Counted from the stretch's first letter, positions 23,431 through 46,864 are shown. The stretch: 64,000 nucleotides of DNA from Synergistales bacterium (GCA_963666205.1 OY762654.1:608001-672000); one strand, 5' to 3'. Translations and numbers: made by a program. Notes: generated from the letters alone by a model not told the origin.

Positions 23431-25677
23431 TCACTTCTTTATAGACGATGACGGGATAAGGAGACCGGCAAGAGGGATCAGCAGCAGAATAGCTCCCCAA
23501 GGAAGAGAAGAAGCATTGCATCCACCTCCACCGCCTCCTCCACTTGCAGTTGTTGTCGATGTGGTAGTTGTTGTACTGGAAGAAGGAAGAGCGAAAAAGT
23601 CCTGGTTACTGACATTGGTTCCTTCAACTGTAACACTTGAAGATGAAGGGTTAAAAACATAATTTGACTTGCTTACCGAGATAGTATAATCACCTTCAGG
23701 AACTTCCAGGCTATAGCTTCCCGTAGAGGAAGTGTATGTCTGTCTTGTCAGGAAATTTCCGCTAGCAGTAACTGTAACTCCGGAAAGTACTCCATCTTCT
23801 GTCGTAATCCTTCCGGAAAGCAGATACTGTTCTGTTGATGACGAAGCTCCCAGGCTGACAGAAGGATCACCATAGAGATTAAAGTCGGTAAAGTTCATCC
23901 ACCAGGTTGAGGTGGGGTATCTTCCCTGTTTAACAAGAAAAAGGGCAGTTCCAAAATCTTCCTCATACTCTATTATCCTTTTGGAAAAATCATAGGTCAT
24001 CCCTGCGCTGGTAACACTTCCGGAGAATGATGTCTGGCCAGGAGAGTACCACGAATACCTGGTTGCACCTATAGAGGCAATGGCACCATTTTTTAAAAGC
24101 GAATATGAAAGATTATTGGAGGTCTCGGGATGGGCATTCATACATGACCCCTGAAAGACCACTGCGGGATGGCTATTATCGAGGGTGGCCACATGTGAAA
24201 GATCCATTACATCACTTGCTGTTGTATACCAGCCATGGGTCCACCATAACACCGCTCCGAAATTGCTCTGGTTCCAGCTATTCGTAACATTGGTAGTAGT
24301 ACAGGGAGTTTTTTCTGGAGAAACTCCATAATTCTCGTCATAGACCCTGGTATAACCCCATCCTGCAGGGAGTATGTCATTTTTTACAGCTTCACCGAGG
24401 TGATATCCCGGAGTACGGTCATCACTGGGTTTCATTGGTAAAAGGACATTTTCTCTCCAGCCCGATTCATCCTGAGCCGTATTCTCGTAAGTCATGATCT
24501 TGAGAAGAATTGAATCCAGGTCGGAAATGCTGCCATAGTAAGGAATCCGGCCTATAAAGACTTCCCAGTTAGTATCAATCCCGCCGGTAACCATATCATG
24601 ATCACCCTCGCCATATCTACCATCCCCATCTTTGTCCCAGTTACCTGTAAGATCAGCGTAGTAAAGATCGGAAGGTGACTGCCTGTATCCATCTTCTGTG
24701 TAGGAGGAAGCATTATTCCTTGGCCACAGCATCTTCATGGGAACATCTCCCGTGGATGGATCAGGGTTGCCAAGCAGGAGGACGTACTTCAGGCTTCTGG
24801 ACTGATAGTTGTTTTTCAGCCATGTTCTTATCCTTTCAGCAGCAGTATTACCAGTTCCTCCGCCCCAGCCGGATTCAGTAACAAGTTGAACCGAAAACCC
24901 TCTTGAAGTTTTCCATTCCATAAAGTTTGAAAGCTGGCTTGAGGAATTCACAATGTTTGAAGTGGTAATGATGGCATAACCAGTACCAGCCTGGGGTTCT
25001 GATGAAGAAGACAGGGAAGATGGACCATCGGGAAAGTTAATTACCGATTTTTTGACAATCGATTCGGTAATGCTGTCCATACCGGATGAAGACAATACCT
25101 CTCCACTGCTTTCATAGTTAACTACAATTTCGGCTTCCCTGAGTTTAAACAGATTTCCCTGAACAGGATTGTACCTGTAAACTGCAATGGGAACATCAAT
25201 TACATTTTCCCCTCTAATCTGTCCAGTCCGGATCCCATATATATGTTCAGCAGGGAAGACCTCATCCTTTGTATAGACAGCCATGTCACGGCCTTCTATC
25301 AGGTTTCTGTCTTCGGGCCAGAGATGAACATCCTCTTCTCCATTCCACGTTGCGGCAGGAGATACAGGACTGATATCAAAAGGACCGGTAATAAGCTCTT
25401 CTTCGACATTTTCAAGAGAAATTGAAATACTTTCAGGAACTGTTCCACGGGGAAGGAGAATCTTATAATTTACGTAGGGAATTGAAGGTTCTCCCGTTGC
25501 TGAGAGGAACTGAAATTCAGACCCGGAAAAGGTTATGACATTGCTATAGTCTGCTTCGTCTATAACTTCTACTGGCGGTAAGGGTACAGTGAAAACTTCT
25601 GCAAAAGCGATCGAAATACTTAAAATGCTCAATAGTACGGTGAAAAAGACAATAATTACCCGGTCAGATATTTTCAT
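23431..25677 (-). CDS. Peptidase C25 (gingipain-like) cysteine protease with propeptide, C-terminal beta-sandwich, Thr linker and Synergist-CTERM-like anchor
   Basis: Signal peptide; GEPSIP propeptide; YAIIT, YVLLLG, SDLYYADL, FIGRIP, WTHG (His), GSC (Cys), FNLYGDP; tail GGGGGCN-hydrophobic-KK. Confidence 0.85.
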   Translation of the reverse strand: MKISDRVIIVFFTVLLSILSISIAFAEVFTVPLPPVEVIDEADYSNVITFSGSEFQFLSATGEPSIPYVNYKILLPRGTVPESISISLENVEEELITGPFDISPVSPAATWNGEEDVHLWPEDRNLIEGRDMAVYTKDEVFPAEHIYGIRTGQIRGENVIDVPIAVYRYNPVQGNLFKLREAEIVVNYESSGEVLSSSGMDSITESIVKKSVINFPDGPSSLSSSSEPQAGTGYAIITTSNIVNSSSQLSNFMEWKTSRGFSVQLVTESGWGGGTGNTAAERIRTWLKNNYQSRSLKYVLLLGNPDPSTGDVPMKMLWPRNNASSYTEDGYRQSPSDLYYADLTGNWDKDGDGRYGEGDHDMVTGGIDTNWEVFIGRIPYYGSISDLDSILLKIMTYENTAQDESGWRENVLLPMKPSDDRTPGYHLGEAVKNDILPAGWGYTRVYDENYGVSPEKTPCTTTNVTNSWNQSNFGAVLWWTHGWYTTASDVMDLSHVATLDNSHPAVVFQGSCMNAHPETSNNLSYSLLKNGAIASIGATRYSWYSPGQTSFSGSVTSAGMTYDFSKRIIEYEEDFGTALFLVKQGRYPTSTWWMNFTDFNLYGDPSVSLGASSSTEQYLLSGRITTEDGVLSGVTVTASGNFLTRQTYTSSTGSYSLEVPEGDYTISVSKSNYVFNPSSSSVTVEGTNVSNQDFFALPSSSTTTTTSTTTASGGGGGGGCNASSLPWGAILLLIPLAGLLIPSSSIKK

Positions 25678-25756
25678 GTTATAGCACCTCCACTCAGACT
25701 TAAGAACACCCCAGGGGTATACCCGGAGGTGTTAATCCAAACAGAGGTGCCGCAAC

Positions 25757-25838
25757 TTCGGCGACCCGGCTGTCATGGCCTTCCGGCTTTAGACCCGTGG
25801 TTTTGCGTCACCGCCTTTCAGCGGTTTTGCCTTTTCGG
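25757..25838 (-). ncRNA. c-di-GMP-I (GEMM-I) riboswitch #1
   Basis: Minus strand CGAAAAGGCAAAACCGCT-GAAA-GGCGGTGACGCAAAACCACGGGTCTAAAG...ATGACAGCCGGGTCGCCGAA; about 80 nt upstream of the C25 start codon. Confidence 0.92.
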
Positions 25839-26319
25839 CTACTTTTGCTTTCAGAAGTTCCCGTAAAAATTCACTATTTCAAATTAAAAAAGCAGATGCT
25901 CAGGTTTAGATAAAGTAGCGGATCCGGGAATGTCGAAAAGATTAAAAGAAACCGAATAGAATGATCTGACTCTGAAATTCTCGCTTCATTGTTTGTTAAA
26001 TAGATTATGATACGTCAGGTACAGTTATTATTCGACAGTAAATGATAATTGAATTTCAGGAGCACCCGCATAAAATGTTGCATCCTGAAAAAGAAGCAGA
26101 TGCTCAGCCTTGTCAATAAAAAGGTGTCAGGTACAAAGATAGTTCAGGACTTTTCCGCTTAAATCCCTGCTTGAAATTAAGGCTGAAAATAGTGAGGTGC
26201 AAAATTCCGGAATATGATCATAAAGGAGAAGAAGGACAATGAAAGGAATAGTTAAAATGCAAAAATAGAAAGAACTGGAAATTTGGAGCATCTGCAAACT
26301 TGTTTAAAAATCAAGGTTC

Positions 26320-26356
26320 AAAAAAAAGTGCCCTTGGAAAACCTCCAAAGGCACTT
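26320..26356 (-). terminator. Intrinsic terminator (expression platform of riboswitch #2)
   Basis: AAGTGCCTTTGGA-GGTTT-TCCAAGGGCACTTTTTTTT on the minus strand, about 20 nt downstream of the aptamer. Confidence 0.82.
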
Positions 26357-26378
26357 GACATGACCAGGTAATTACCTT

Positions 26379-26463
26379 TTCGGCGACCCGGCTGTCATGG
26401 CCCTTTGGGGGCTGTAGACCCGTAGCTTTGCGCCGCCACCTTTCGGTGACTTTGCCTTTCTCG
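26379..26463 (-). ncRNA. c-di-GMP-I (GEMM-I) riboswitch #2
   Basis: GAGAAAGGCAAAGTCACC-GAAA-GGTGGCGGCGCAAAGCTACGGGTCTACAG...ATGACAGCCGGGTCGCCGAA. Confidence 0.92.
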
Positions 26464-26489
26464 ACGCTCACAAACTCTAGCGCATTCAA

Positions 26490-26518
26490 AAGATATAACA
26501 GAACGATCCTTTTGTCAA
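26490..26518 (-). promoter_or_regulatory. Sigma70-type promoter driving the riboswitch #2 leader
   Basis: TTGACA-17 nt-TATCTT on the minus strand. Confidence 0.65.
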
Positions 26519-26567
26519 GACTTCAATGTAAAAAAAGTACAACAATATCTATTTTTCTTCTTTTGAC

Positions 26568-26598
26568 AAAAAAAGAGAGGGGACAAAGTCCCCTCTCC
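26568..26598 (-). terminator. Rho-independent terminator after Cys-rich protein 1
   Basis: GAGAGGGGAC-TTT-GTCCCCTCTC followed by a T-tract. Confidence 0.8.
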
Positions 26599-26615
26599 AT
26601 ATAGATTAAACTAAC

Positions 26616-28532
26616 CTAGAACCTTCTGAACCAGAGTGCTCCAAGAGGTGCAAGAAGCAGGAGTACTGCTGCTCCGGTTCCTACGTTACATCCGCCGCCG
26701 CTTGAAGAAACTGGACCGTTTGTTCCACTGTCGTCGTCATCGTCATCGTCTCCGCCAGGTGCAGGAGCTTCGGTCGGGAAATCTGCAGGATCGCCTGCTC
26801 CCCAAATTGTTCCAAGAAGTGCTGACGCATCACCCTCATAGGTTGCGCAGACTTCTCCAGTTCCCTCTGCGAGAGAGATCCAGAGCCCCGTATCTTCGTC
26901 GAAGAGGAATATTCCGAAGTCGCCATTTGAAACATCCTCCATGCAGATGACGATCTTGCAGATACCTTCACCATCAGCAGGAACGAACTTGGGTTCGAAG
27001 AATAGATCGCCACTGGTACATGGGTCGGGGCATTCTGCCTCTACGATATCTGCCGTCACACATTCTGTCGGATCACAGGCATACGTCTTGACTTTATATA
27101 CGACAGAACCAAAGTTTCCCTCCATGTACTGAGGCAGATACCAGCCAAGTGCAAAGGTATCCCCTTCAAGGGCACAGAGTTCTCCAGAATTGCAGTCGTC
27201 TGCACAGGCTCCGCTGAGTGCAAGCTCCAGGGAGCAGTCGCACTCTTCATCTCCACATGCTGGAGTATCGCAATTCTCGTTGAAGGTTGTATCAAGGGGT
27301 TCCCAGACACAATCTTCATCGCATTCATCAACCTCAACCATTTTCCAGATGCCCCACTCCGCATCAGCATCGCAGGGACAGCAGACTGGAAATTCGAGGT
27401 TGATGCCGCTGATGTTATCGCAGTTGAGAAGATCCATAGTGAAATACCTTACGAACTGGTAAGTGGCATCGCAGCAAGGCTCACAGGCATCGTCGTCATC
27501 ATCATCGCATTCCACGTGGCATGTCTTCCAGAGGACAACGTCGCCAGGCTCTTCGCACTCATCACAGTTGATGACTTCATAGTCATACCATTTGTACCTG
27601 GTGAGGAAGGTGGTTTCTCCGGCCCTGTAGTAATCCTTCCAGCATTTCAGGCAGTCAGAATCACGGACTTTAAGTTTTCTGCCACCATAGATAACTTCAG
27701 AGAAAGTCGGCCTGGTTGCCTCGTCATTTTCCCTGGTGAATTCGAGATCCGGGTGGAACCAGCTGCACAGGATCTCCTTGTCACAGCCATCACAATCATC
27801 GTCGTCATCGCACTGGCTGTCGCCGAGAACACAAGGACCACAATCATCGTCGTCATCATCAAGTACACAGACGGTGTCCTCATAAGTGCAGTAAAGAACC
27901 TCTACATCACAGGGTATACAATAAGGATAAGGAGCAGTATCGAAGTACTCATCCCACTTATCCTCGTCGAAGCACCTTTCCTCATCTGCATCTCTGTTGT
28001 AGCACATGTAATCAATGTATTCGCAACCGGGTTCAATGGTTACCTTGGTCACGAAATCCGCCCATGAGAACTTGTCGTAATAGCTGCTATCCCAGCTATC
28101 CAGGGGGTTCCAGCAGCTCTGCCAGTCGAGGTCAGTATCGAATATAAGACTGAAGGCAGCGATGTCATCTCCACAACACCTGTCTTTATCGTCTCTTTTA
28201 ATTACTCCCTGATGGCGTGGAACCTCACAGCACATGCAGTTGTACCATTCGCATCTCTGATCCTTGAACATCTCATCGCCTGGCTCCCAACACTCACAGT
28301 ATCTGGACTGAATAAAATCCCAATCCTGAGCACAGGGAAATTCGTTAGTCTGCTGACAGGCATCAACATTCTTTACGAATTCCACAAGCCACCTTGTGCC
28401 GTTGATCTCCTTGTCATATGTCTGTGTAGGATTCGTATACACTATCTGGGGGGTTAATTCTTCTGCAAGAACAACTCCACCAAGAACGAAAACCATACAT
28501 ATGGCAAGAGCAAAACACATAAGTTTCTTCAT
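26616..28532 (-). CDS. Secreted Cys-rich/Asp-rich surface protein with Synergist-CTERM sorting domain
   Basis: Signal peptide (MKKLMCFALA...VLA), about 55 Cys, poly-Asp runs, tail SSSGGGCNVGTGAAVLLLLAPLGALWFRRF. Confidence 0.85.
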   Translation of the reverse strand: MKKLMCFALAICMVFVLGGVVLAEELTPQIVYTNPTQTYDKEINGTRWLVEFVKNVDACQQTNEFPCAQDWDFIQSRYCECWEPGDEMFKDQRCEWYNCMCCEVPRHQGVIKRDDKDRCCGDDIAAFSLIFDTDLDWQSCWNPLDSWDSSYYDKFSWADFVTKVTIEPGCEYIDYMCYNRDADEERCFDEDKWDEYFDTAPYPYCIPCDVEVLYCTYEDTVCVLDDDDDDCGPCVLGDSQCDDDDDCDGCDKEILCSWFHPDLEFTRENDEATRPTFSEVIYGGRKLKVRDSDCLKCWKDYYRAGETTFLTRYKWYDYEVINCDECEEPGDVVLWKTCHVECDDDDDDACEPCCDATYQFVRYFTMDLLNCDNISGINLEFPVCCPCDADAEWGIWKMVEVDECDEDCVWEPLDTTFNENCDTPACGDEECDCSLELALSGACADDCNSGELCALEGDTFALGWYLPQYMEGNFGSVVYKVKTYACDPTECVTADIVEAECPDPCTSGDLFFEPKFVPADGEGICKIVICMEDVSNGDFGIFLFDEDTGLWISLAEGTGEVCATYEGDASALLGTIWGAGDPADFPTEAPAPGGDDDDDDDSGTNGPVSSSGGGCNVGTGAAVLLLLAPLGALWFRRF

Positions 28533-28573
28533 AACGCTTTTACACCTCCCCTAAGGTTTGAAACGCATTTAGG

Positions 28574-28659
28574 TTCGGCAACCCGGCGGTCGTAGTCCCC
28601 CTTTAGAACCTTAGACCCGTGGCTTTGCGCCCCGGCCTTTCGGACGGTTTGCCTTTTCG
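28574..28659 (-). ncRNA. c-di-GMP-I (GEMM-I) riboswitch #3
   Basis: CGAAAAGGCAAACCGTCC-GAAA-GGCCGGGGCGCAAAGCCACGGGTCTAAG...ACGACCGCCGGGTTGCCGAA; ends about 40 nt before the start codon. Confidence 0.9.
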
Positions 28660-28992
28660 TTTTAAGATTCTTTACTCATACTCTCAATATTTTCTGTTTA
28701 TACACCTCCCTCTTTCCCAGGAATTCAAGCGGAAATTAGAACATTGATAAAGCAGCTTTCCCATAACCTCATCTGTTCAACTAAGGTTATCAAAACAAGA
28801 CTACTTTTCTGAAGAGTTCGACTAAAAAGGTGGATCAATGCGTAAAAATAGATGGTTCAGAAATGTGAAAAAGGGGTAAAAGAATTGCAGTTTTAACATA
28901 AAGAAAAGTCATCAACAAGAGGATTAAATTGTAAAAAAAGATATGTAAATGAAAGATTCAATTAATAATCAAATGATATTCAAGTTTTGTTA

Positions 28993-29021
28993 ATAATACT
29001 ATTCTATACTCTAACTGTCAA
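28993..29021 (-). promoter_or_regulatory. Near-consensus sigma70 promoter upstream of Cys-rich protein 1
   Basis: TTGACA-17 nt-TATTAT on the minus strand. Confidence 0.72.
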
Positions 29022-29178
29022 CCGTATTAACTTATCGAATAGTCATCTGTTTTTCTATTTTTTCTGGCTTTATATTAATTATAAACCCAGGCATGTAATT
29101 AGCATAGTCCTTATGGATGATTCTATATGATTATCCTGGACTATGCAACATGAGTCTTAAGGCCCATCAGGCTAATAC

Positions 29179-29214
29179 AAAATAACCAGGGGGTATTTTA
29201 TCCCCCTGGTTATT
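29179..29214 (-). terminator. Rho-independent terminator after Cys-rich protein 2
   Basis: AATAACCAGGGGG...CCCCCTGGTTATTTT. Confidence 0.78.
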
Positions 29215-29261
29215 GACAACTTCATATGATTCATTGAAAAGTCAAGCTTCTGATTTCAGAA

Positions 29262-30725
<1,464 letters not shown>

Positions 30726-30758
30726 TTGATATACCTCCCCTATAACTTGAGCAATAGG

Positions 30759-30842
30759 TTCGGCAGCCCGGCTGTCATGGCTCTTATAAAGCGTTAGACC
30801 CGTGGCTTTGCGCCCCGGTCTTTTGACCGGTTTGCCTTTTCG
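30759..30842 (-). ncRNA. c-di-GMP-I (GEMM-I) riboswitch #4 (AAAA loop variant)
   Basis: CGAAAAGGCAAACCGGTC-AAAA-GACCGGGGCGCAAAGCCACGGGTCTAACG...ATGACAGCCGGGCTGCCGAA. Confidence 0.88.
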
Positions 30843-31120
30843 TTCAAACAAAAAATATCTTCAAAGAACGAACATCATACGACAGTGCAAGATTCACATG
30901 GTCAGTGGTACTACAACTGCTCCCTCCTTCCCTCTTCGGGTATTTAAGCGGAATCCTCAAAAATGAGGAAATTAAGACTTTAGTAATTTATCAGCTTTGA
31001 ATTCGAAATAAGGACTTAAAGTAATTTAAAAGATCAAAAAAAGATACATGACCAGGATGGATGGAAAAATCACAGGAGTATAGATCAGAAACATCGCGTT
31101 CTTTCACATGTAAAGAAATA

Positions 31121-31149
31121 ATACTATTATCCACCTGATCACTTGTCAA
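31121..31149 (-). promoter_or_regulatory. Sigma70-type promoter upstream of Cys-rich protein 2
   Basis: TTGACA-17 nt-TAGTAT on the minus strand. Confidence 0.65.
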
Positions 31150-31383
31150 GCGCTTTAAAGCATTGCACTGAAGAATAGAATCTCCAAGATGCTACACTTA
31201 ATAACAATTTAGCACCTTGTAGAATAATCTGGTGAGTTTGATAGACCATACTATAGGGATTTTTGTACTATTTCCATAGTAACTTGAGAACTATCGTGAT
31301 AATGAAACATGAGAGTTTGTACCTGTTAATATTTAACAATATCTCTGGAAGGCAACTCTTGAGAGGATAGCATTACCTGGCTG

Positions 31384-33977: not shown

Positions 33978-34322
33978 TCACATATTAACCGGTCTTACTT
34001 CCAGTGCTATGTTATTTTGATCCAGCCATATCCCTATCCCTCTATTTTTAAATGATTCCAGGAATTTGACTGCTGATATCCTATTTCCCTCAAAATCATA
34101 AAAATTAGTGTAGCCATTCTGCCAGAGAATAGATTCTTTCTTTACATCAATTGTTATTGAATACGGCTTTGTCCCCATTTCTTTCAGAACTCCCCATAGG
34201 GGTTCCTTAAGCTCTATTTTAGGTTCAACTTCACGAATATTTTTTTTCGCTGCCAATGCATATCCTGTGAAAAAAGATACGATCAAACATGCGAGGCAAA
34301 CAATTAGCATTATTTTTTTCAT
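33978..34322 (-). CDS. Small exported protein translationally coupled to pilY1
   Basis: Signal peptide MKKIMLIVCL...ALA; ATGA overlap with the pilY1 stop. Confidence 0.7.
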   Translation of the reverse strand: MKKIMLIVCLACLIVSFFTGYALAAKKNIREVEPKIELKEPLWGVLKEMGTKPYSITIDVKKESILWQNGYTNFYDFEGNRISAVKFLESFKNRGIGIWLDQNNIALEVRPVNM

Positions 34323-37300: not shown

Positions 37301-37543
37301 GGTGGAGGATTGGGAATAGGTCCGATAGGTCATGGACCCACTTGTATCCAGAAGCATAAGGACATTGGGCTGCAGCATCCTGCCAAAACCCAAAGGGGTC
37401 GTTTTGGAAAGAGGTGCCAGAATCGAGTCTTCATCATATGCCAAAGAAAGAGAACTTGAGCAAAGGGTCAGAATTGCAATCATTCCCATAGCAAATAACA
37501 TTTTTGCTTTCGGGGAAAGGAGCCTGTTACATAAGGTTTTCAT
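34319..37543 (-). CDS. pilY1: PilY1/PilC-type type IV pilus tip adhesin with vWA domain
   Basis: PNVLMLLDTSGSM (MIDAS), IVLTDG, KLGDIYHS, ANDGMLHAF, ERWAFIP, LDGP, DPC..GTSRLY; lies downstream of pilV/W/X-like genes. Confidence 0.85.
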   Translation of the reverse strand: MKTLCNRLLSPKAKMLFAMGMIAILTLCSSSLSLAYDEDSILAPLSKTTPLGFGRMLQPNVLMLLDTSGSMTYRTYSQSSTYGDGSRPYSNQYYYGRDVDSSNNDPDVAYNYHSQLTYIPDEELPFYDRAYLGGDSISGYLYPNDSRMYQLKLVLWEILEDPVMTAGLNLGMATYYQYSQWNTSDWYYYGGGYENISWEYSTYSGSKASLRVPFGSTDDVEHMDELKSWIDGYESNTNEELRANGHTPLGYSIYDSSTSDFDSAKDFFFHSSQGAITNWCQENWLIVLTDGQETGGGDPVQAVKDLYDYAENSSWTDDFGEQAQPVRTFVIGLIAPDDDDFVGLVDDLNQMADWGDDGIDNDSATAYFPTDVETLLSSFREIFSIIQVRSGTGGAPLVSPARLEGESGAVFVSTYVPKEERQWEGDLLKYTLSGDIIPDSADWSAGDQLNAINYDDRTVYTVDWQSPYADMPITGSNFASFNNDEALNLRSEVFWNPDLRTYGPTAANDGSEAPGTGATRKFVRWVLGSDEWDENVGDERWKLGDIYHSGITEVGPPLGSNPHSEYRAFMQNNLDRAKIVYIQANDGMLHAFNSETAGESVGGKERWAFIPPNVLGCGRLMGLRGYYVYKQAAHDWVFRVKEDNERVSIPRFLLDGPLVAEDVYLGGSWRTVLLNLLGYSGAGMYAIDITDPDEPDFLWAVENAIYTPDDLDIIPGGDEYHTVSYWVESGDHITRINYDHDSTIPSDLDYRQLRFTLSVPAIGSMKLSGTNHWVAVMGNGSSRQIVGDSPDGAVYVIDIENGEIIRTLTKSGMKEVVTPVTVLNTSSAQIIETFLVGDNDGHVYLWNVGNDWAGTEVFDMNASVGSSYRMDIAELNGDLWVFVITGDNDPLVANADTNYFIAFNVEGTNNFPITFDDLNKLVDDEVNSDPDGWYLEFPTDEEELATTPPLVYNGYVFFSTFKNNVDPCQVGTSRLYIVKAGTGASGWGSGSNRYIEFEGYKISGITLNDDRVFVGVTDYSGGTSENSLPDELDSLNASQQGNVLTFDVPDPVASSSFPIASGQMRSRYWREWKP

Positions 37544-37574
37544 AAAATATCACTCCCTTTTATTATCCTGTAAA

Positions 37575-38204
37575 TCACAACCTGGCTACCATAGATTGTT
37601 CTACGATCTCCCTTTTATCTTCAAATGTAGCAGTACTCCTGATCAGGTAGAAACCGAGGGAAATACTTCCCCCTCCGCCTACGCTACCTTCACCTCTATT
37701 TGCTCCCGCATAGGAAGAACCCTGATGCAGTGACATTGCGACTTCGTAAGTATAATCCAGGCGTGGAGGAAACCCTGCTATATAGTCGTCACTTTCTATA
37801 TCCAGACCAATTCTCCAGTCCATATCATAGATATCCACAGTCACCGCAACCTGACCTATGGAATAATTTATATTGGGCAGGTTCCCATCAATATCCCTAA
37901 CCTTGAGTACATCGTAATTGCCACCAGATAAATTGTCCCTGTTAAGCTCACCAAAGGGATTATCTGCCTCCCAGCGAGGTAGTTGTCCATCAGCAGACAT
38001 TGTACCTCTTATCCATATCTTACCCTTTTCAAGCCCGTCAACAGCAGCATTATAAAGCTCGACCTTCTCCACAACGTTCGTTGAAGATGCAACCAGATTA
38101 TTAACAATATTATAGGTAACAGAAACAAGAACTCCTCCCAATACCAGGATAACAAGAACCATTGGAAGAGCAAAACCACCCGCATTTTTAAAATGTTTTC
38201 GCAT
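37575..38204 (-). CDS. PilX-like minor pilin
   Basis: Class III signal G|FALPMVLVIL lacking Glu5; LYNAAVDGLE; C-terminal YLIRSTA. Confidence 0.75.
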   Translation of the reverse strand: MRKHFKNAGGFALPMVLVILVLGGVLVSVTYNIVNNLVASSTNVVEKVELYNAAVDGLEKGKIWIRGTMSADGQLPRWEADNPFGELNRDNLSGGNYDVLKVRDIDGNLPNINYSIGQVAVTVDIYDMDWRIGLDIESDDYIAGFPPRLDYTYEVAMSLHQGSSYAGANRGEGSVGGGGSISLGFYLIRSTATFEDKREIVEQSMVARL

Positions 38205-39106
38205 CAGTTCCTCACCCTCCAACTGCTTCTGACTACGGTCAAGCGATAATGTCTGGCTTCTTCAGGTAAAGCCCCAAGATCAGCTTCTGGCCAATCATCG
38301 ATCTGGGCAGGAGTAACAAGATCATCACTTCTCTGGTTGCCCCGTGCAAGAACATATGCCGTAAGAACACCGGGGCTACTGGTATCAAAATGAATTGAAT
38401 ATATGCCTTCCACACTGCCAAGCAGTTCTCCTCTGGTAAGATCTTCCATCTCAAATCGGCTCCCGTTAACCCTTGCTCGGGCGGCCCTCACAAGGTGCAT
38501 TTCGTCAAAGAACTGAACAGTACCTCTCTCATGAGGTTCTATTTCAATGGAAGATGATCCAAGATCTGTAACCTTACAGGGAGTTGCTCCGGCCGGGAAA
38601 ACCACCCAGGCCTCTGTCGTAATGGGCGGATCATCATCCACAATATCAAGGGTACCCGGGTCTCCTGTAAGGTCTATTGTACTTTTGACATTCGGCCGAA
38701 GTTCTAACTCCCCAACCGCGGCCAGTCCGGAGGGTACCGAATAAACAACATCAAGGACCTGATCGGAACTGCTTATTCGAAGGGCAGAACCAATATTATC
38801 AACTGTGGGTATTTCGTTGAAAACAGTTCCAAAATCTGAAGAGGTATTTGGAATTCCCAGGCTCGCAGCCAGAACGGGGCCGTTCAATATCGTGAATACC
38901 ATTTCTCCCCTCTGGCGTGCTGCTGTAAGATCAGTATCAAGCTCATAATGACTGAGAAAGGCAGAGAACAACCCAATTACGGAACCCATTATGATAAGAC
39001 CGACCACAATGACGATAAGGATCTCCACAAGAGTAAAACCATCCTTGCGCAGTCCCTTGTAATCCTTCATCTTGATAACAGAAGATTGCCTAAAGTAGGA
39101 ATTCAT
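38204..39106 (-). CDS. PilW-like minor pilin
   Basis: Prepilin motif KDG|FTLVEILIVIVV. Confidence 0.8.
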   Translation of the reverse strand: MNSYFRQSSVIKMKDYKGLRKDGFTLVEILIVIVVGLIIMGSVIGLFSAFLSHYELDTDLTAARQRGEMVFTILNGPVLAASLGIPNTSSDFGTVFNEIPTVDNIGSALRISSSDQVLDVVYSVPSGLAAVGELELRPNVKSTIDLTGDPGTLDIVDDDPPITTEAWVVFPAGATPCKVTDLGSSSIEIEPHERGTVQFFDEMHLVRAARARVNGSRFEMEDLTRGELLGSVEGIYSIHFDTSSPGVLTAYVLARGNQRSDDLVTPAQIDDWPEADLGALPEEARHYRLTVVRSSWRVRN

Positions 39107-39115
39107 AGCCTCACC

Positions 39116-39484
39116 TCAATCTAAGACTTCATTGTCCGCAAACTCGCTTATTTCCCTCTGAATGGTAAAGCTAGAATTATCACGCAACACACCATCCCAG
39201 GTAACGATCATAGTAACATTCTTTGAATGGGAATCTTCAGACACAGCCCACGACCTGGTATAAATGCCTGCCTGATCACTCGAAGTAACTATGGTGTCAT
39301 AATCTCCTGCTTCAAGAACATCCAGCCGTTCCGACCCAAGCATTACGGCTTTCTCCTTCTCATAGGTATGTACCATCAGTTGCGAAGAAACTATAAAAGT
39401 TGAAGCAATCGCAAAAAGTGCAATGACAAGCAGGACCAGAGCAATCAATACTTCTACAAGACCGAAACCAGCTTTCCTCTTCAT
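39116..39484 (-). CDS. PilV-like minor pilin
   Basis: Prepilin motif KAG|FGLVEVLIALVLL; small size; first gene of the V-W-X-Y1 order. Confidence 0.8.
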   Translation of the reverse strand: MKRKAGFGLVEVLIALVLLVIALFAIASTFIVSSQLMVHTYEKEKAVMLGSERLDVLEAGDYDTIVTSSDQAGIYTRSWAVSEDSHSKNVTMIVTWDGVLRDNSSFTIQREISEFADNEVLD

Positions 39485-40362: not shown

Positions 40363-40438
40363 TGGCTCCTCGGGCAGGACTCGAACCTGCGACCTAGTGG
40401 TTAACAGCCACCCGCTCTGCCAATTGAGCTACCGAGGA
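40363..40438 (-). tRNA. tRNA-Asn(GTT)
   Basis: Cloverleaf TCCTCGG...CTGTTAA...GTTCGAGTC...CCA. Confidence 0.96.
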
Positions 40439-40465
40439 ATATTGAAACATATTGTATATATTTAG

Positions 40466-40539
40466 TGGAGGCGGCACCCGGATTCGAACCGGGGATAAAG
40501 GATTTGCAGTCCTCTGCCTTACCACTTGGCTATGCCGCC
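40466..40539 (-). tRNA. tRNA-Cys(GCA)
   Basis: GGCGGCA...CTGCAAA...GTTCGAATC...CCA. Confidence 0.96.
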
Positions 40540-40556
40540 AACAAATTTTCAGGTAA

Positions 40557-40631
40557 TGGAGCGGAAAACGGGATTCGAACCCGCGACCCCAACCTTGGCA
40601 AGGTTGTGCTCTACCGCTGAGCTATTTCCGC
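40557..40631 (-). tRNA. tRNA-Gly(GCC)
   Basis: GCGGAAA...TTGCCAA...GTTCGAATC...CCA. Confidence 0.96.
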
Positions 40632-40653
40632 CCGTCATTTATCGTTATCAAAA

Positions 40654-40729
<76 letters not shown>

Positions 40730-40750
40730 TCAGTGATAAGGACAAATAAA

Positions 40751-40827
40751 TGGCGGGGCTGACGAGACTCGAACTCGCGACCTCCGGCGTGACAGGCCGG
40801 CGCTCTAACCGACTGAGCTACAACCCC
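40751..40827 (-). tRNA. tRNA-Asp(GTC)
   Basis: GGGGTTG...CTGTCAC...GTTCGAGTC...CCA. Confidence 0.96.
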
Positions 40828-40863
40828 GCATTGCAAAGATTATCAATGTCCTGCTTTAAACAA

Positions 40864-40938
40864 TGGTGGGCGGAACAGGGTTCGAACCTGTGACCCCCTG
40901 CGTGTAAGGCAGGTGTTCTTCCGCTGAACTATCCGCCC
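40864..40938 (-). tRNA. tRNA-Val(TAC)
   Basis: GGGCGGA...CTTACAC...GTTCGAACC...CCA. Confidence 0.96.
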
Positions 40939-41840: not shown

Positions 41841-41931
41841 CGAAGAGCCTCCAGATCTTTAAGTACAGATTTTACAAAACAACTTTTATTCTACTTCAGA
41901 TTTCTTTGAAATGGGAGAAAGGGAAATTGTC

Positions 41932-42636
41932 TTATTTTAATAACTGCTGTCTAAGCATCGTTACAAAATTGTGGGCAGCCCTTGCAGGTTCTGGAAGACG
42001 GTATTTTGTGCAGCAGGAAAGGACGATTTCAGGAGCCTGAACGATGGAAACCTTGTGACCGGGACTTATGTAAAGGGGACGAACGTTACTTCGGGTCCTG
42101 AGAACTGTGCCTATAATCTCTTCTCCATCATACAGGGGAACTCTGGCCCCCTTTTCGGATGGAACAGGTTCATGATTTCCCGTAAGACGGCTCTTGGCAA
42201 CACCCACCGTAGGCTGGTCGATGGTTACCCCGAAATGGGATGCGAGGCCAAGGCGTCTCGGATGGGCAATCCCTGCTCCATCTACAAGCCATATATCCGG
42301 CATGTTCTGTAATTTTTCACAGGCATCCATGAGAACAGGGAGTTCACGAAAGGAAAGCAGCCCCGGAATGTAGGGAAAGGATATGTCTTTTACTGCATAA
42401 ACCCTTTCCACCACATTCCAGGTTCCGTATTCCATGATAATTATACCGGCCACGGCCATGGTTTCTTTACCGATACGAGAGTAGGACACGTCGGTACCAG
42501 CGATAGATAATATCGAATGGATAGCAGATTGACTTAGATGGACGTTACAAGATTGTTTTTTTTGCTCTTCAATAGCCTCAATATAATAATCATTGATCTG
42601 CATCCAGCTATAATCTCCTCCATCAGAAATATTCAT
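41932..42636 (-). CDS. nfi: Endonuclease V (deoxyinosine 3'-endonuclease)
   Basis: AGTDVSY, FPYIPGLLSFRE, VDGAGIAHPRRLGLASH, GVAKS, RLPEP. Confidence 0.93.
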   Translation of the reverse strand: MNISDGGDYSWMQINDYYIEAIEEQKKQSCNVHLSQSAIHSILSIAGTDVSYSRIGKETMAVAGIIIMEYGTWNVVERVYAVKDISFPYIPGLLSFRELPVLMDACEKLQNMPDIWLVDGAGIAHPRRLGLASHFGVTIDQPTVGVAKSRLTGNHEPVPSEKGARVPLYDGEEIIGTVLRTRSNVRPLYISPGHKVSIVQAPEIVLSCCTKYRLPEPARAAHNFVTMLRQQLLK

Positions 42637-42738
42637 AAACTATCCCTGTCTATAGCGCTGATAGAAAAACAGAAAGGGGACCCAATAACACTCAGTCCCC
42701 TTTAGGTATGTAATTTAACTTAGTCGGATGGTGTAATC

Positions 42739-45408
42739 TTAATTCCGAACCCTCCAATAGACCTGAACAGTATCGGCGAAATCAGCAGATACATCACCTG
42801 AGTCCTCAGTTATACCGAACTCAATACCCAAGTCTTTGCTATAAACTGTACCATCTGTTTTAGGAATGTAAAGGACACCATCGGAACCAACGGTTGCCGC
42901 TACAAATTCCTCTCCAGGAAAATCAACATAATCACCATCTTCTCCCTCAGTAAGCTTAGTTGAAGCTCCGTTAACTTGTGAATCAAGAAGATCATCCATC
43001 TCTAAAGTATAGAGTCTGCTCAAGCCAATACCATCTTCTGCAGTGGTACTATAAACAGCTAAATAGAGAACACCATCTAAAAAGAGAGGTGTAGCGACTA
43101 GTTTTTCGAATTCATCAGCATTGGCTCCATTTCCCGTCTGAAGTTCAACTTCAAAAGAATCATCTATTTCAAAATTCCCTCCATCAATCCTGTCTTTTAC
43201 CATTGTAACGGTTTCTCCAGCCTGCCCCTGAGCAGATTGAAAAGCCAGGATCTTTGGCTCATAATCTTCCGCCATATAATCACCCAAGGCTGACTCCATA
43301 TCTAGAACAAATAAATTTGTAGTATCGTGGGGGTTACTGGCGTTAAAATCTATTTCTAAAACAGCAGCCATGTAAGTATGTGTCTCTATTCCACTCTCAC
43401 CCTGTTCATCAAAATAGGCAATGTCAAAATCCTGCAGAGGGGGAGCTGGATTTGTATTATGAGTTGAAATATTTGTTACAGTTGAAAAAAGTTTCCATGG
43501 ATCATTCCCTGCCTGAATATTCCACAAATAACAGGACCCATTAGAAAGATAAACATAAACATCACTTAATACAGGTAACCCTCCATATTGATTAGGCTCT
43601 TTGGGATAGGCAGCAAGCATTCGGGTAGGATCCCAATCCTCAGCACTCCATTCACCATTCAGGATATACCACAAAGTCTCATCATTCCCGGAATATTGAT
43701 CTGTAAACCGTTTATGCCCCTTAATATTACCTGTGAGCGGATCAAGATCATACCAGTGGTAATAATATGTTCCATAATCCTCATCATATTCCATGCCAAC
43801 AATAAGAGCATGCCAATCCAGGTTTCCCTTCTCTCCTGTCAGACCGATCAAAGGTCTGGCACAAACATAATCAAGGTAGAGATCACGAGGATTTGATGAT
43901 GAGAAATTTTCTGATTCTTTATCTCTATCCCAGAAAATATTAGTTTGTTCCCATAAAAAGATCGGGTTGTCTGGATCAGTTACGTCAAATGCATATATGG
44001 CAAAGTTTTTCCCAACTTGATGAGCAGGTTCCAGTTCTTCTTCTGCCGGAGCCAGATTATAATCCTGGAGTTCCTCTCTCCACCCAGAAAGAACCTTATT
44101 CTTCAAATGGATTCCCAGACCCGAAGTTCCGATGAGTATTCTTTTCCATTCTCCATCACTGCCATCTTCCTGGACATCATGAACAAATATGGGACCATCA
44201 AGGTTGGTCAATCTGGGATAATACCCAAGGATTGCATTAAGGTTTTCCTGGTAAGGTGCAGTCCTTAATGCAGGTTCAGGAATCACTGCCCAATTTCGTT
44301 TGACGTATGGATCTGTATCGGGATCATCTATGTCCAATTTGTTTAAAAGTCCATCATTGGTAGGAAGAAAAACTACAGGTTCATCTTCTGGCCAATCTTC
44401 TGGCAGTCCATCAGGATCAACAAATCGGGTTATCCAATAGTTTGTCTTCCAAACAAGCAGAGGAGGAGCATGGCCTGAGTCCGCAAGGATTTCCCCAGCT
44501 TTAAGAGAGGTATCCGTCCCCTCAAGAAATGTATACCAGTTGATCAACCAATCAGTATAGAATTCCTGGTTCGCATAAAATTCCTCTGGTTCTCCTTCAG
44601 GATCTTCTTCATCCTGAAAATAGAACCAGTTCTCCACATACTCCGGTGTAACGGATATATCTCTCAAGGTTGGTTTCATTCTGATACTTATAGATTCATT
44701 ATCTTTTATCTTAATAAGATTCTCGTTATCTGTATCAAAAAACCTCAATCCATATCCTGTGTTTCCCAGTTCGTGATCAACTGCCAGGGTTGGAAAGGCG
44801 GTCTCATCTTCTTTCCTTAATACGTTAAGATTCCCTCCCCAGGCGGACAAGGAATTAGAAGGCTTAATAAAGGAAACCGATGCAATAACGTTCCTTCCTA
44901 CACTGGTAAAGGAAAGAGGGGCGTTTGGTCTGTCTGATACTTCTGTCTGGTCTGGCCACAGGGGCCACATGGAAAGATCTGAAATAGCCGCATTCCCTTG
45001 ATCTGGTGAAACAACTATTTCAGTAATAGTTACAGAGATTGTAGCAGTGCTCATATGAGCACTGTGCTCGTTACCAACTCTTCCATTATCTTTCCGCCAA
45101 TCAGTTACGGTATATTGGAAAGAGTCGGTACCAGAATAACCTGTGTCTGGAGTATAAACAACATAGCTACCTTCTGCACTAGCTGAACCATGTGAAGGAT
45201 CTGAGCAATTAATAGCATAGAGTTCATCACCGTCAACATCTGTATCGTTACCAAGAACTGCGATAGAAACAGAATTATTCTCATAGGTTGTTGCAGTATC
45301 ATCCTGTGCAACTGGTGCAACATTTGCAGTAGAAATACCAGAAAGGGAAAAAAGCAGTGCTCCTAAAATGATGAATAAAGAGAACAGTAACTTCAGACAA
45401 TTTCGCAC
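42739..45408 (-). CDS. Divergent PilY1-like adhesin with N-terminal Ig-like/cadherin-like domain
   Basis: Signal peptide; NVAPVAQDDTATTYEN...NDTDVDGD...GTDSFQYTVTD Ig-like unit; TNDGLL, WAVIP, LDGP, YAFDVTDPDNP, GLSRLY, C-terminal YWR as in pilY1 #1. Confidence 0.72.
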   Translation of the reverse strand: MRNCLKLLFSLFIILGALLFSLSGISTANVAPVAQDDTATTYENNSVSIAVLGNDTDVDGDELYAINCSDPSHGSASAEGSYVVYTPDTGYSGTDSFQYTVTDWRKDNGRVGNEHSAHMSTATISVTITEIVVSPDQGNAAISDLSMWPLWPDQTEVSDRPNAPLSFTSVGRNVIASVSFIKPSNSLSAWGGNLNVLRKEDETAFPTLAVDHELGNTGYGLRFFDTDNENLIKIKDNESISIRMKPTLRDISVTPEYVENWFYFQDEEDPEGEPEEFYANQEFYTDWLINWYTFLEGTDTSLKAGEILADSGHAPPLLVWKTNYWITRFVDPDGLPEDWPEDEPVVFLPTNDGLLNKLDIDDPDTDPYVKRNWAVIPEPALRTAPYQENLNAILGYYPRLTNLDGPIFVHDVQEDGSDGEWKRILIGTSGLGIHLKNKVLSGWREELQDYNLAPAEEELEPAHQVGKNFAIYAFDVTDPDNPIFLWEQTNIFWDRDKESENFSSSNPRDLYLDYVCARPLIGLTGEKGNLDWHALIVGMEYDEDYGTYYYHWYDLDPLTGNIKGHKRFTDQYSGNDETLWYILNGEWSAEDWDPTRMLAAYPKEPNQYGGLPVLSDVYVYLSNGSCYLWNIQAGNDPWKLFSTVTNISTHNTNPAPPLQDFDIAYFDEQGESGIETHTYMAAVLEIDFNASNPHDTTNLFVLDMESALGDYMAEDYEPKILAFQSAQGQAGETVTMVKDRIDGGNFEIDDSFEVELQTGNGANADEFEKLVATPLFLDGVLYLAVYSTTAEDGIGLSRLYTLEMDDLLDSQVNGASTKLTEGEDGDYVDFPGEEFVAATVGSDGVLYIPKTDGTVYSKDLGIEFGITEDSGDVSADFADTVQVYWRVRN

Positions 45409-45424
45409 ATTTAAACAAAGATTA

Positions 45425-46039
45425 TTAATGAATCATCACCACCATGGATTCGAGCTCGAAGCTCTTAGATCCATCCTTCGTTGACGCTGTAGAGCGAATG
45501 ACAAAAGGATGATATTTCAAACCAACACTTCCGCTGAAAGTCATTACACGGTTCGGATCTATTATCATGGAATAACCCCTTGGAACATCTATAGTGCCTC
45601 CACCATCCTCACTGGCATCATACGGTAACCGGATTATGGGGAGATCACTGTTGTAGGTCTGACCTAAACCCATCTTATAATTACAATCAAGGATATCAAC
45701 TGTCAGTTCTAGGTTTTGAGAGTCATAAATAGAAGTATCGGGTATACTGTCAATATTGCTGGCAACCAAATCAGGCTGGATCTTTGCCCTTATATCATCA
45801 AGGTCCCCATTGTAAGTCTGCAACCCCACATACAAATCTTCACGCTCCTCATATAATCGAATTTTTCCCCATTCAATTCCGCTCTGGGCTGCGTCGTAGA
45901 GTTTCTGGTGATCTATGGTAGCCTGGGAGGAACCAACATAGTTTGTTGTCATGTCCATTATCACTGCACTGATACCAATAATAACAACCATCAGAATAAG
46001 CACCATTCCAAGGGCAAAACCTTTTTGTTTTCGCATCAT
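45425..46039 (-). CDS. PilX-like minor pilin (paralog of 37575-38204)
   Basis: KQKG|FALGMVLILM; LYDAAQSGIE; FVIRSTA. Confidence 0.75.
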   Translation of the reverse strand: MMRKQKGFALGMVLILMVVIIGISAVIMDMTTNYVGSSQATIDHQKLYDAAQSGIEWGKIRLYEEREDLYVGLQTYNGDLDDIRAKIQPDLVASNIDSIPDTSIYDSQNLELTVDILDCNYKMGLGQTYNSDLPIIRLPYDASEDGGGTIDVPRGYSMIIDPNRVMTFSGSVGLKYHPFVIRSTASTKDGSKSFELESMVVMIH

Positions 46040-46181
46040 ATAATCACCTCGAATAATGAGTATAAAGAACAAATGAAGATTCCTGACAATCTTCAGTTAT
46101 ATAACTTTCACACATACAATAGACCATAGACTACGGTATTTTTTTTCAAAGTCCTTGATTTATTAAAAAATTAAAACCCAT

Positions 46182-46460
46182 TGACCTGCTCCCCGAAAAG
46201 TGGTCCAGTCGAAATGCGAAAAAGTTGTTAAAATTGGACCCATTGGGGAGGAAATGACATGAAGAAAAAAGATTTTCCGAGGAACAGATCATATCCATAC
46301 TGAAAGAGAACGAGGCTGGAATCCCGATCAGGGAACTAGCCAGGAAATACGGTTTTTGCGAACAGACCTTCTATAGATGGAAAAGCAAGTTCGGAGGCAT
46401 GGAGGTAAGCGAAGCCAGGAAACTCACATTGAAAATGGACCTAATACAGGAGGCAGGTCA
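46182..46460 (+). mobile_element. Internally deleted IS3-family element (279 bp) with both terminal IRs and a 4-bp target duplication
   Basis: IRL TGACCTGCTCCCCG..TGGTCCA, IRR TGGACC..GGAGGCAGGTCA, CCAT on both sides; frameshifted OrfA remnant RFSEEQIISILKE...TFYRWKSKFGGME; no OrfB. Confidence 0.88.
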
Positions 46461-46600
46461 CCATTAGTATCTTAATCGTAAAAAGAAATATTATATAGTC
46501 CTTTATTACTATGTCGAGGAAATTGGCCTATTTCTACATTTCTAAGGCCCATTACACTTGCCATTTGAATCAAAAGTTTATGAGAAAAGGATTGATAACA

Positions 46601-46626
46601 GAAAAACCCTTCGGTTGCCCAAAGGG
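46601..46626 (-). terminator. Intrinsic terminator (expression platform of riboswitch #5)
   Basis: CCCTTTGG-GCAA-CCGAAGGG-TTTTTC. Confidence 0.75.
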
Positions 46627-46639
46627 AAGTATAGACCCA

Positions 46640-46720
46640 ATAAGCAGCCCGGCTGTCATAGTTAAAACACTTTAGACCCGCAGCTTTGCGTCACCACCTT
46701 TCGATGGTTTTGCCTATATA
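46640..46720 (-). ncRNA. c-di-GMP-I (GEMM-I) riboswitch #5
   Basis: TAGGCAAAACCATC-GAAA-GGTGGTGACGCAAAGCTGCGGGTCTAAAG...ATGACAGCCGGGCTGC; TTGACA-16-TAGAGT promoter at 46734-46761. Confidence 0.88.
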
Positions 46721-46864
46721 ATTATACAATGTAACTCTAGGGCTTTAAGGGGGTTTGTCAATCACACTTTAGCAGTGTGAATATTCACTTTAAGGATGCA
46801 GAATCAACATAGAGAAATCGGGGGGAATTTTAAAAAAGGAAAGATAACTGGTCTGTATAAATTC

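Follow-up and report, generated by a model that had tools for sequence, protein, structure and literature searches.

What do five elements resembling class I riboswitches for cyclic di-GMP (c-di-GMP) control when they lie within about 21 kb on one strand of a bacterial genome? They are found in a 64,000-nucleotide (nt) stretch of DNA from a Synergistales bacterium (GCA_963666205.1, OY762654.1:608001-672000; hereafter the window, with positions counted from its first letter), where a preliminary description saw a local system confined to those 21 kb. The analysis points instead to something larger. The window would be part of a c-di-GMP-I riboswitch regulon whose main targets are proteins with Synerg-CTERM tails, the cargo of MrtS and a dedicated type II secretion system (T2SS); from the sequence evidence we put the probability of this reading at about 0.75. 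The riboswitch class, and the control of adhesins, proteases and pili by c-di-GMP, are already known. The regulatory link from riboswitch to Synerg-CTERM cargo is new.

A scan of the whole window with Rfam cmscan at the gathering threshold gave 16 matches, five of them to the c-di-GMP-I family (RF01051, gathering score 35 bits):

30759-30846, minus strand: c-di-GMP-I aptamer, 87.1 bits, ahead of the gene for a CTERM protein of 487 amino acids
28574-28663, minus strand: c-di-GMP-I aptamer, 82.4 bits, ahead of the gene for a CTERM protein of 638 amino acids
26379-26466, minus strand: c-di-GMP-I aptamer A, distal in the leader of a C25 protease gene, 79.5 bits
25757-25841, minus strand: c-di-GMP-I aptamer B, proximal in the same leader, 83.5 bits
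46640-46724, minus strand: fifth c-di-GMP-I aptamer, 79.2 bits, GC content 0.44

The five GEMM-I aptamers named in the preliminary description, all on the minus strand, are confirmed by the covariance model at 79.2–87.1 bits against the cut-off of 35. Each match is full length (model positions 1–87), with E-values from 7.5e-16 to 6.3e-14; the clan relatives of RF01051 gave lower scores at these sites, and the scores far exceed those of chance matches. In the printed alignments G occupies model position 11, the unpaired base immediately 5′ of the first G–C pair, in all five, as had been claimed, and the first of the two Cs in the 3′ gCCgaa block is likewise kept in all. By our own reading of the alignments these two positions are G20 and C92 of Vc2. 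Of the ligand's two guanines, G20 is reported to contact one and C92 to pair with the other, and A replaces G20 in relatives that sense cyclic GMP–AMP (cGAMP) (PMC6140456). The G found at the G20 equivalent in every aptamer therefore supports the c-di-GMP type at the sequence level; specificity for cGAMP, which would call for A, was rejected. These are bona fide aptamers of the G20 type, predicted to bind c-di-GMP, and each is followed by a recognizable expression platform.

The claim that each aptamer leads into an exported or surface gene stands only in part. The targets do bear signal peptides with CTERM-like tails, or resemble pilus-tip proteins, but aptamer A abuts no gene and the fifth aptamer is 567 nt away from its candidate target. 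Two of the targets are acidic proteins:

29262-30725, minus strand: secreted acidic Synerg-CTERM protein of 487 amino acids; TIGR04564 18.8 bits for the whole protein, 24.6 bits for its 50-residue tail
26616-28532, minus strand: secreted Synerg-CTERM protein of 638 amino acids; TIGR04564 24.4 bits for the whole protein, 29.6 bits for its tail
26574-26598, minus strand: terminator 3′ of the 638-residue protein gene

Both tails exceed the TIGR04564 cut-off of 22.5 bits, in agreement with their earlier assignment; scored whole, the 487-residue protein lies below it. The shorter protein starts at the ATG at 30725, not at a TTG that overlaps the aptamer at 30759. The longer has 56 cysteines (8.8%) and 13.9% aspartate and the shorter 21 cysteines (4.3%) and 11.7% aspartate, against a mean cysteine content of 1.29% in the genome's long open reading frames (ORFs); both contain poly-D runs and have an isoelectric point of 4.05. 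They had been called paralogues. A BLASTP comparison gave an E-value of 2.5 with the alignment limited to the tails, so that paralogy is not detectable and what the two share is composition. A Pfam scan found no domain in either, and an ESM Atlas look-up gave no lead (best score 0.80 for the longer, no match for the shorter). The family of the 638-residue protein is present in 3 of 151 sampled Synergistota genomes, only within the window's own family.

The remaining CTERM-tailed target in the window is the protease:

23431-25677, minus strand: C25 (gingipain-family) peptidase of 748 amino acids; Peptidase_C25 131.3 bits, Propeptide_C25 24.2 bits, CarboxypepD_reg 34.9 bits

The match to PF01364 spans all 374 profile positions (1–374) and the propeptide is PF08126 at 24.2 bits, as expected of a C25 family member. 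The protein ends in a Gly7-Cys CTERM-like tail for which TIGR04564 was the sole match (19.1 bits, E 0.001), below the cut-off. The motifs WWTHGW and FQGSCMN, seen by eye about 31 residues apart, may hold the catalytic His/Cys dyad of gingipains. Sequence searches of the PDB with the peptidase gave no usable match. About 900 nt from this gene is a membrane methyltransferase of the ICMT/PEMT family (21835-22533, plus strand; PF04140 36.3 bits, PF04191 37.3 bits); its proximity to Cys-tailed cargo is suggestive, MrtS being a homologue of Rce1-type (CAAX) proteases, and may be coincidence.

The scale of the system is apparent from the complete 2.95-Mb genome, which holds 16 c-di-GMP-I aptamers above the cut-off and 2 weaker ones. 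With the C25 pair counted once, these form 15 regulated units, where the downstream ORF is taken as the longest that starts within 750 nt. Eight of the 15 precede CTERM-tailed secreted proteins: the C25 peptidase, the 638- and 487-residue proteins, an 893-residue Chlam_PMP protein, a 781-residue beta-helix protein, an 806-residue BNR_4 protein, a 398-residue InhA-MAM protein and a 715-residue protein without a Pfam match. TIGR04564 reaches its cut-off on three of the eight tails (29.6, 24.6 and 27.9 bits) and is the top match below it on three others (19.1, 21.9 and 13.0 bits); the other two of the eight share one tail, which was found by a regular expression alone. About 25 ORFs in the genome are CTERM-tailed (24 matches to the regular expression, one of them false, plus two more), and the enrichment among the riboswitch units has a hypergeometric P of 5e-14 over 2917 crude ORFs.

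The machinery expected for such cargo is encoded in the same genome, at a distance from the aptamers: MrtS scores 229.1 bits with NF040589 (cut-off 130) and GspL of the Synerg-type T2SS 339.8 bits with NF041617 (cut-off 150). In this the genome resembles the described Synerg-CTERM/MrtS system (10.1101/2023.06.07.544157), as it does in the form of the tails, in which a Gly/Ser-rich run leads to an invariant Cys, followed by a Leu-rich transmembrane segment with Pro and by basic residues. The main text of that paper has no occurrence of either "riboswitch" or "c-di-GMP". The GspL match (G000:C1:2637470-2638561, where G000 is the window's genome) is reported with one internal in-frame TGA.

Downstream of the other seven units are genes for a MASE3-GGDEF cyclase, a LysO-like pair, a 266-residue Lys/Gly-rich secreted protein, three proteins of 172–181 residues and a pilX/Y1-like pair. 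The cyclase (G000:C1:1164386-1165771) has a 78-bit aptamer before it and is one of 10 GGDEF matches in the genome; a feedback loop through it is possible. Riboswitch-preceded ORFs resembling it in length and C-terminus occur in three relatives (G135, G080 and G151), the Pfam scan having been made on the G000 protein. The small targets, which have no Pfam domain, recur (G000:C1:1650683-1651213, 2297738-2298283, 2826911-2827429 and relatives): one type begins MSMYFY..VG..V..PLLDP and is found in two Synergistota families, and the other ends in ..L.G..L.I.GDETVLEV and is found in genomes of the window's own family alone. A long aptamer variant of 136–142 nt with an insertion, scoring 50–60 bits, is present in all five family genomes; in G000 (G000:C1:2072718-2072855) it precedes a split LysO-like exporter. 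One further aptamer, before a 778-residue BNR_4 CTERM protein, scores 32.7 bits (G000:C1:1557543-1557628), and its orthologue in G135 (G135:C4:87587-87673) 88.2 bits; it looks like a riboswitch in decay.

Among the 151 sampled Synergistota genomes, 28 carry the aptamer. All five genomes of the window's family, which represent three genera, are rich in it (16, 18, 12, 6 and 14 copies), and the others have 1–7. The window is accordingly a slice of a genome-wide and family-wide regulon rather than the local system first envisaged. Its gene order recurs: an aptamer and a CTERM protein of about 490 residues, an aptamer and a Cys/Asp-rich CTERM protein of about 630 residues, and several aptamers ahead of a C25-like CTERM protein are found in G135, G080, G105 and G151, and hence in all five family genomes, with three aptamers ahead of the C25-like gene in G151. 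The synteny check proposed in the preliminary description thus bears out a module conserved across three genera. The DNA downstream of aptamers in the 27 other positive genomes yielded 81 units, and one more without an ORF; 12 of the ORFs are cut by contig ends and 69 are complete. A CTERM-like tail ends 21 of the 69, in eight genomes of two families. TIGR04564 was the top match for 28 of 32 tails tested and scored at or above its cut-off on 17; of the four that it missed, two are false positives of the regular expression that do not lie downstream of aptamers.

Other Synergistota families use the aptamer differently. Double and triple tandems precede a secreted protein of about 311 residues, and single aptamers precede serpin-like proteins, proteins resembling methyl-accepting chemotaxis proteins, and GGDEF proteins. 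The tandem aptamers are about 140–200 nt apart, ahead of conserved secreted proteins of about 300–330 residues (loci L042, L044, L047, L051 and L052 in family f10, where the proteins are about 311 residues long; L045, L048 and L055 in family f6). In another family, aptamers lie ahead of secreted proteins of about 410 residues (loci L069, L078 and L082, in G100, G114 and G107), whose C-termini look serpin-like.

How would c-di-GMP act on these genes? The simplest platform follows the aptamer at 30759:

30726-30758, minus strand: compact platform with GCCGAA, the hairpin CCUAU..AUAGG and GGAGGU, followed by the ATG at 30725

After the aptamer at 28574 the corresponding elements are CCUAA..UUAGG and then GGAGGU. 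Across the five family genomes, 13 of 15 short leaders share this design: GCCGAA, a hairpin of 3–10 bp, and GGAGG abutting the 3′ arm. The arms vary by lineage (CCUAU/AUAGG, CCUAA/UUAGG, CCUGAAA/UUUUAGG, CCCAA/UUGGG and CCCGGAAGGU/ACUUUUUGGG). In the minimum free energy (MFE) fold the compact helix is extended by GCC/GGU pairing over a GAA/GGA internal loop, which covers the Shine–Dalgarno (SD) sequence. The covarying hairpin would place the GCCGAA at the 3′ end of the aptamer beside the SD sequence GGAGGU, and because GCC contains the C92-equivalent base, a ligand that engages it should free the SD sequence. A slight preference therefore goes to reading the aptamers at 28574 and 30759 as translational ON switches.

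The leader of the C25 gene is built on another plan:

26490-26518, minus strand: promoter-like site upstream of aptamer A, TTGACA-17-TATCTT (10/12)
26318-26356, minus strand: intrinsic terminator downstream of aptamer A (14-bp stem, then U8)
25680-25756, minus strand: long hairpin after aptamer B, in which GCACCUC pairs with the SD sequence GGAGGUGC

The TTGACA is common to three of the four genomes aligned, and terminators stand at the equivalent place in G080, G105 and G151. The terminators after aptamer A and the fifth aptamer use no aptamer strands, as in Cd1 of C. difficile flgB. Cd1 is described as an OFF switch whose terminator can form together with the aptamer, the two competing with an antiterminator (PMC9262584). 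The 5′ arm of terminator A holds UGCCUUU, complementary to an invariant AAAGGCA on the 5′ side of the aptamer, and the segment ACCUGGUCAUG is able to pair with the 3′ strand of the aptamer; in G080 and G105 the terminator has GCUUUGC or GUUUUGC instead, and the complementary stretch of the aptamer is GCAAAGC. Unlike that of Cd1, the antiterminator pairing here is a proposal from the sequence. Because of the Cd1-like separation of terminator and aptamer strands, termination upon c-di-GMP binding, and thus an OFF switch, is the reading favored for aptamer A, with marginally more assurance than the ON assignment above. The anatomy of the platforms hints at mixed regulatory directions within the regulon. 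An attempt to deduce direction from unconstrained MFE folds was dropped: aptamer and platform structures appear together in them, so that folding alone does not discriminate between ON and OFF.

The preliminary description gave the C25 protease two aptamers. Both do lie upstream, but the distal one has its own terminator, and the roughly 480 nt between that terminator and aptamer B hold two copies of an RNA structure of about 200 nt. The leader is therefore multi-stage rather than a simple doublet:

26086-26295, minus strand: RNA unit U1; helix P1 joins 26286-26295 with 26096-26105, and helix P2 joins 26277-26285 with 26200-26208, enclosing 68 nt
25886-26069, minus strand: RNA unit U2; helix P1 joins 26060-26069 with 25892-25901, and helix P2 joins 26051-26059 with 25972-25980 (9/9 pairs), enclosing 70 nt

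Each unit is followed by a U-run after P1, and U1 carries a conserved UUUAAGCGGAAAA block. In all five family genomes the P1 5′ arm, GCAG[A/G]UGCUCC, follows terminator A, and the complementary 3′ arm, GAGCA[U/C]CUG[C/U], lies 180–210 nt beyond it; one position of P1 shifts from A–U to G·U to G–C among lineages. P2 adjoins the P1 5′ arm on its 3′ side, and its letters are lineage-specific (CAAAUUUCC/GGAAUUUUG; CAGUAUCCA/UGGAUACUG; CUGAAAUUC/GAAUUUCAG; ACUGAACUU/AAGUUCAGU; and CUGCAUC/GAUGCAG in G151). For eight units the arms of both helices were located by script; P2 was misplaced for G151, whose pairing is taken from the alignment, and in the other seven units it encloses 63–70 nt. Two tandem units are present in G000, G135 and G080, and a U-run follows seven of the eight. 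Across an alignment of five sequences, pairing holds in 92% of cells, compared with 32–48% when the partners are slid, and six pairs show compensatory changes, a count reached in 4 of 500 shuffles; two of the rows are near-identical and the sample is small. The global fold of the spacer has a z-score of 0.08, so overall stability is not unusual and the support is limited to the specific helices. Taken on the sequence evidence, the spacer is a conserved, covarying RNA structure without an Rfam match.

Rfam 15 gave no match at E ≤ 1 between 25842 and 26378 except the flanking aptamers, and a group I intron or other known ribozyme was rejected on that ground. Searched by BLASTN against the genome itself, the spacer and the two long regions 5′ of aptamers returned self-matches alone. 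All five family genomes contain the arm pattern, as do 7 of 263 other genomes, which are GC-rich; a control pattern gave 4 matches in 3 genomes. In a scan of the whole genome collection the pattern gave at least 120 matches in unrelated phyla, which is uninformative because by our own arithmetic about 130 are expected by chance. Within the family the units are confined to the C25 leader, always between the aptamers that precede the C25-like gene.

In the favored account the leader runs from the putative promoter through aptamer A with its coexisting terminator, U1 and U2 with a helix and U-run each, and aptamer B to the SD-sequestering hairpin, and expression of the protease would then need several conditions simultaneously. 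What might the units do? It is conceivable, though on balance unlikely, that they represent a new class of cis-acting sensor, either a riboswitch candidate or a protein-dependent attenuator, in which closure of P1 together with the U-run terminates transcription. C25 would then be gated by a four- to five-stage RNA logic that combines c-di-GMP with a second signal and works opposite to the c-di-GMP-induced coat.

RNA contigs bear on this proposal and on its competitors. Logan contigs from four metatranscriptome runs of two studies were placed on 23431-31200; their depth is a poor measure of expression and carries no strand, and contigs cannot prove single transcripts. One contig (25484-26165) bridges U1/U2, aptamer B and the start of C25, and another (26321-26837) links aptamer A with the end of the upstream gene; the reading is confined to the parts of this stretch that contigs cover. 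In the bin 26021-26279 (unit U1) the contig depths sum to 6126, 5158, 3174 and 1301 in the four runs, against 12, 0, 387 and 8 over aptamer A and about 10–57 in most bins of the C25 ORF, which hints at accumulation of U1 in the form of a stable RNA. Several contigs of the U1 region terminate in sequencing-adapter letters, which are read as short inserts. These depths, taken with the strong terminator directly after aptamer A, the covarying helices and U-runs that close U1 and U2 in the manner of stable RNAs, and the pyrimidine-rich, anti-SD-like P2 loop of U1, would fit a different arrangement: aptamer A would gate, or merely precede, a stable non-coding RNA comprising U1 and perhaps U2 (a small RNA or protein sponge, for example), and C25 would be controlled by the aptamer at 25757 alone. 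We consider this slightly less probable even than the sensor. No convincing promoter is seen between terminator A and U1, a gap of just about 20 nt in G151; the units occur only in the C25 leader, between aptamers, in all five family genomes; the bridging contig joins them to aptamer B and the ORF start; and contig depth is the poor measure already described. A third idea, that the spacer encodes a small hydrophobic protein and is not a structured RNA, seems very improbable. A hydrophobic ORF of 54–56 residues (26127-26297 in G000) does begin within the P1 5′ arm, its start codon being AUG here and GUG in the other genera. Small membrane proteins of the kind known from C. difficile are also reported to form a family encoded 3′ of c-di-GMP riboswitches (PMC13724677). 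The ORFs that start at this codon, however, have 54, 31, 40 and 39 residues in four lineages and are dissimilar past the first two or three residues, that of U2 has 16, and the start codon has no SD sequence; compensatory changes in P1 and P2 are predicted for RNA helices and not for a coding frame.

The fifth aptamer presents a separate problem, since what follows it is not simply a pilus operon:

46602-46626, minus strand: terminator-like hairpin directly after the fifth aptamer, CCCUUUGG-GCAA-CCGAAGGG then U5, present in the MFE fold
46258-46467, plus strand: remnant of an IS3-family transposase OrfA, HTH_Tnp_1 61.2 bits, truncated, without a start codon and antisense to the riboswitch
45425-46072, minus strand: pilX-like gene, PilX_N/GspK-like, weak and below cut-offs
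42739-45408, minus strand: PilY1-like gene of 889 amino acids with a Big_9/cadherin N-terminus
34319-39484, minus strand: pilV/W/X/Y1 cluster without a riboswitch (pilV 39116-39484; pilW-like 38204-39106; pilX-like 37575-38222; pilY1 34319-37543)

The riboswitch-free cluster is as previously described. Its 1074-residue PilY1 has the PF05567 beta-propeller (70.9 bits); the 889-residue protein has no Pfam PilY1 match and aligns with it over 177 residues (BLASTP E 3e-7). The pilX-like proteins of the two loci are paralogues (30% identity, E 4e-11). The pairing of the fifth aptamer with a pilX–pilY1 pair, as first proposed, is right to the extent that an intact aptamer lies upstream; a terminator and the antisense insertion sequence (IS) remnant intervene, and the 889-residue protein gene was not found with this query in G135, of the same genus. 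It may be that the aptamer and terminator once gated, and still gate, a strain-specific pilX/PilY1-like pair, and that IS3 insertion later disrupted the arrangement. Alternatively, and with a likelihood only a little short of even, the aptamer was orphaned by the insertion, the pilX/pilY1-like genes use their own promoter, and no c-di-GMP-controlled alternative pilus tip exists today. The terminator directly 3′ of the aptamer speaks for such a loss, as do the 567-nt gap to the pilX-like gene, the next minus-strand ORF, with the antisense OrfA fragment inside it, and the distribution of the 889-residue protein gene, which was found neither in G135 nor in G105 and whose one distant match in G080, at 29% identity, falls on a contig that itself has no aptamer match. 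The aptamer itself, on the other hand, is intact at 79.2 bits, and no terminator was noted within the remnant. About 290 nt of the gap is IS-like (the OrfA fragment plus a 126-nt match; identity to genome position 1069110 is 83% over 128 nt), so the original leader would have been about 230–280 nt long, resembling the other leaders (205–256 nt). A riboswitch-controlled alternative tip is thus strain-specific, and its coupling to the aptamer may be lost.

Around these loci, the pilW-like protein and the 889-residue PilY1-like protein both terminate in ..WRVRN, which may be a C-terminal motif shared by tip-complex partners; the 1074-residue PilY1 ends in ..YWREWKP. The fifth aptamer lies just downstream of the rplL terminator, with an L10 leader (47943-48099) upstream of rplJ–rplL, and tRNA gene clusters of six and four stand at 40366-40938 and 50277-52167.

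The closest known parallel is C. difficile, whose regulon comprises class I and class II riboswitches, the sortase-anchored adhesins CD2831 and CD3246, the protease ZmpI, type IV pili and flagella. Strain 630 is reported to have 16 c-di-GMP riboswitches, the highest count of any genome apart from a few deltaproteobacteria (McKee 2018, PMC6200980); these control adhesins, a protease and pili, and ZmpI is switched opposite to its adhesin substrates (PMC6200980). The present genome also has 16, directed to surface proteins with C-terminal sorting signals, to a protease and to pilus genes. It differs in phylum and in its diderm envelope, and the window scan found class I aptamers only; the cargo carries Synerg-CTERM signals of the myxosortase (MrtS) type instead of LPXTG, and the protease is a C25 cysteine peptidase with a CTERM-like tail, unlike ZmpI. 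Class I switches of C. difficile are mostly OFF and its protease runs opposite to its substrates, whereas the directions given here are inferred from sequence. By analogy with ZmpI, the C25 protease may be switched opposite to the cargo; that it does so with respect to the Cys/Asp-rich proteins, and processes them, is a hypothesis.

Tandem arrangement is a further point of comparison. The c-di-GMP riboswitches are one of three families reported as enriched in tandems, and Synergistota as modestly enriched in riboswitches overall (PMC12452182). Like known c-di-GMP-I tandems (the triple tandem of B. thuringiensis; Bc1, with its long platform), the C25 leader has at least two complete aptamer–platform units, and tandems occur in other Synergistota families as well. 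In contrast to them, some 540 nt separate its aptamers, with one or two copies of a distinct conserved structured element in between. No description of a structured insert between tandem aptamers was found, no search having been aimed at that point. A full-text literature search gave no paper on a link between c-di-GMP riboswitches and Synerg-CTERM proteins in Synergistota, as judged by titles and the starts of abstracts, which agrees with the earlier statement that the combination had not been described there.

Several observations weigh against a c-di-GMP regulon centered on Synerg-CTERM cargo, or against particular parts of it. CTERM tails are missing from the targets of seven of the 15 units here and from 48 of the 69 complete ORFs in other genomes; such targets include small cytoplasmic-looking proteins, LysO, serpins, the secreted proteins of about 311 residues, and MCP-like and GGDEF proteins, and the regulon is therefore not exclusive to CTERM cargo. 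The C25 tail falls short of the TIGR04564 cut-off (19.1 versus 22.5 bits), and two cargo tails gave no match to that model. The ORF rule and the regular expression are heuristics, the latter with 2 false matches among 32 tails. The ON and OFF assignments depend on complementarities of 7 bp (AAAGGCA/UGCCUUU) and 3 bp (GCC/GGU) and could be reversed, and unconstrained MFE folds form terminators and SD hairpins beside most of the aptamer. The RNA contigs show neither strand nor single transcripts, and no sign of read-through across the IS remnant was seen at the fifth aptamer.

Synergistota are anaerobic fermenters of amino acids that live in sediments, digesters, and animal and oral sites, and their c-di-GMP biology is essentially undescribed. 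With 6–18 class I riboswitches per 2–3-Mb genome, the window's family rivals C. difficile. The Synerg-CTERM/MrtS pathway gains its first regulatory context, with candidates for co-regulated cargo in the Cys/Asp-rich coat proteins, the beta-helix, BNR and PMP-repeat proteins and the C25 protease. The RNA wedged between the two aptamers of the C25 leader is a concrete lead to a new regulatory RNA. If its units do act as a sensor, the leader would be a diderm analogue of the circuit that links ZmpI to its adhesins.

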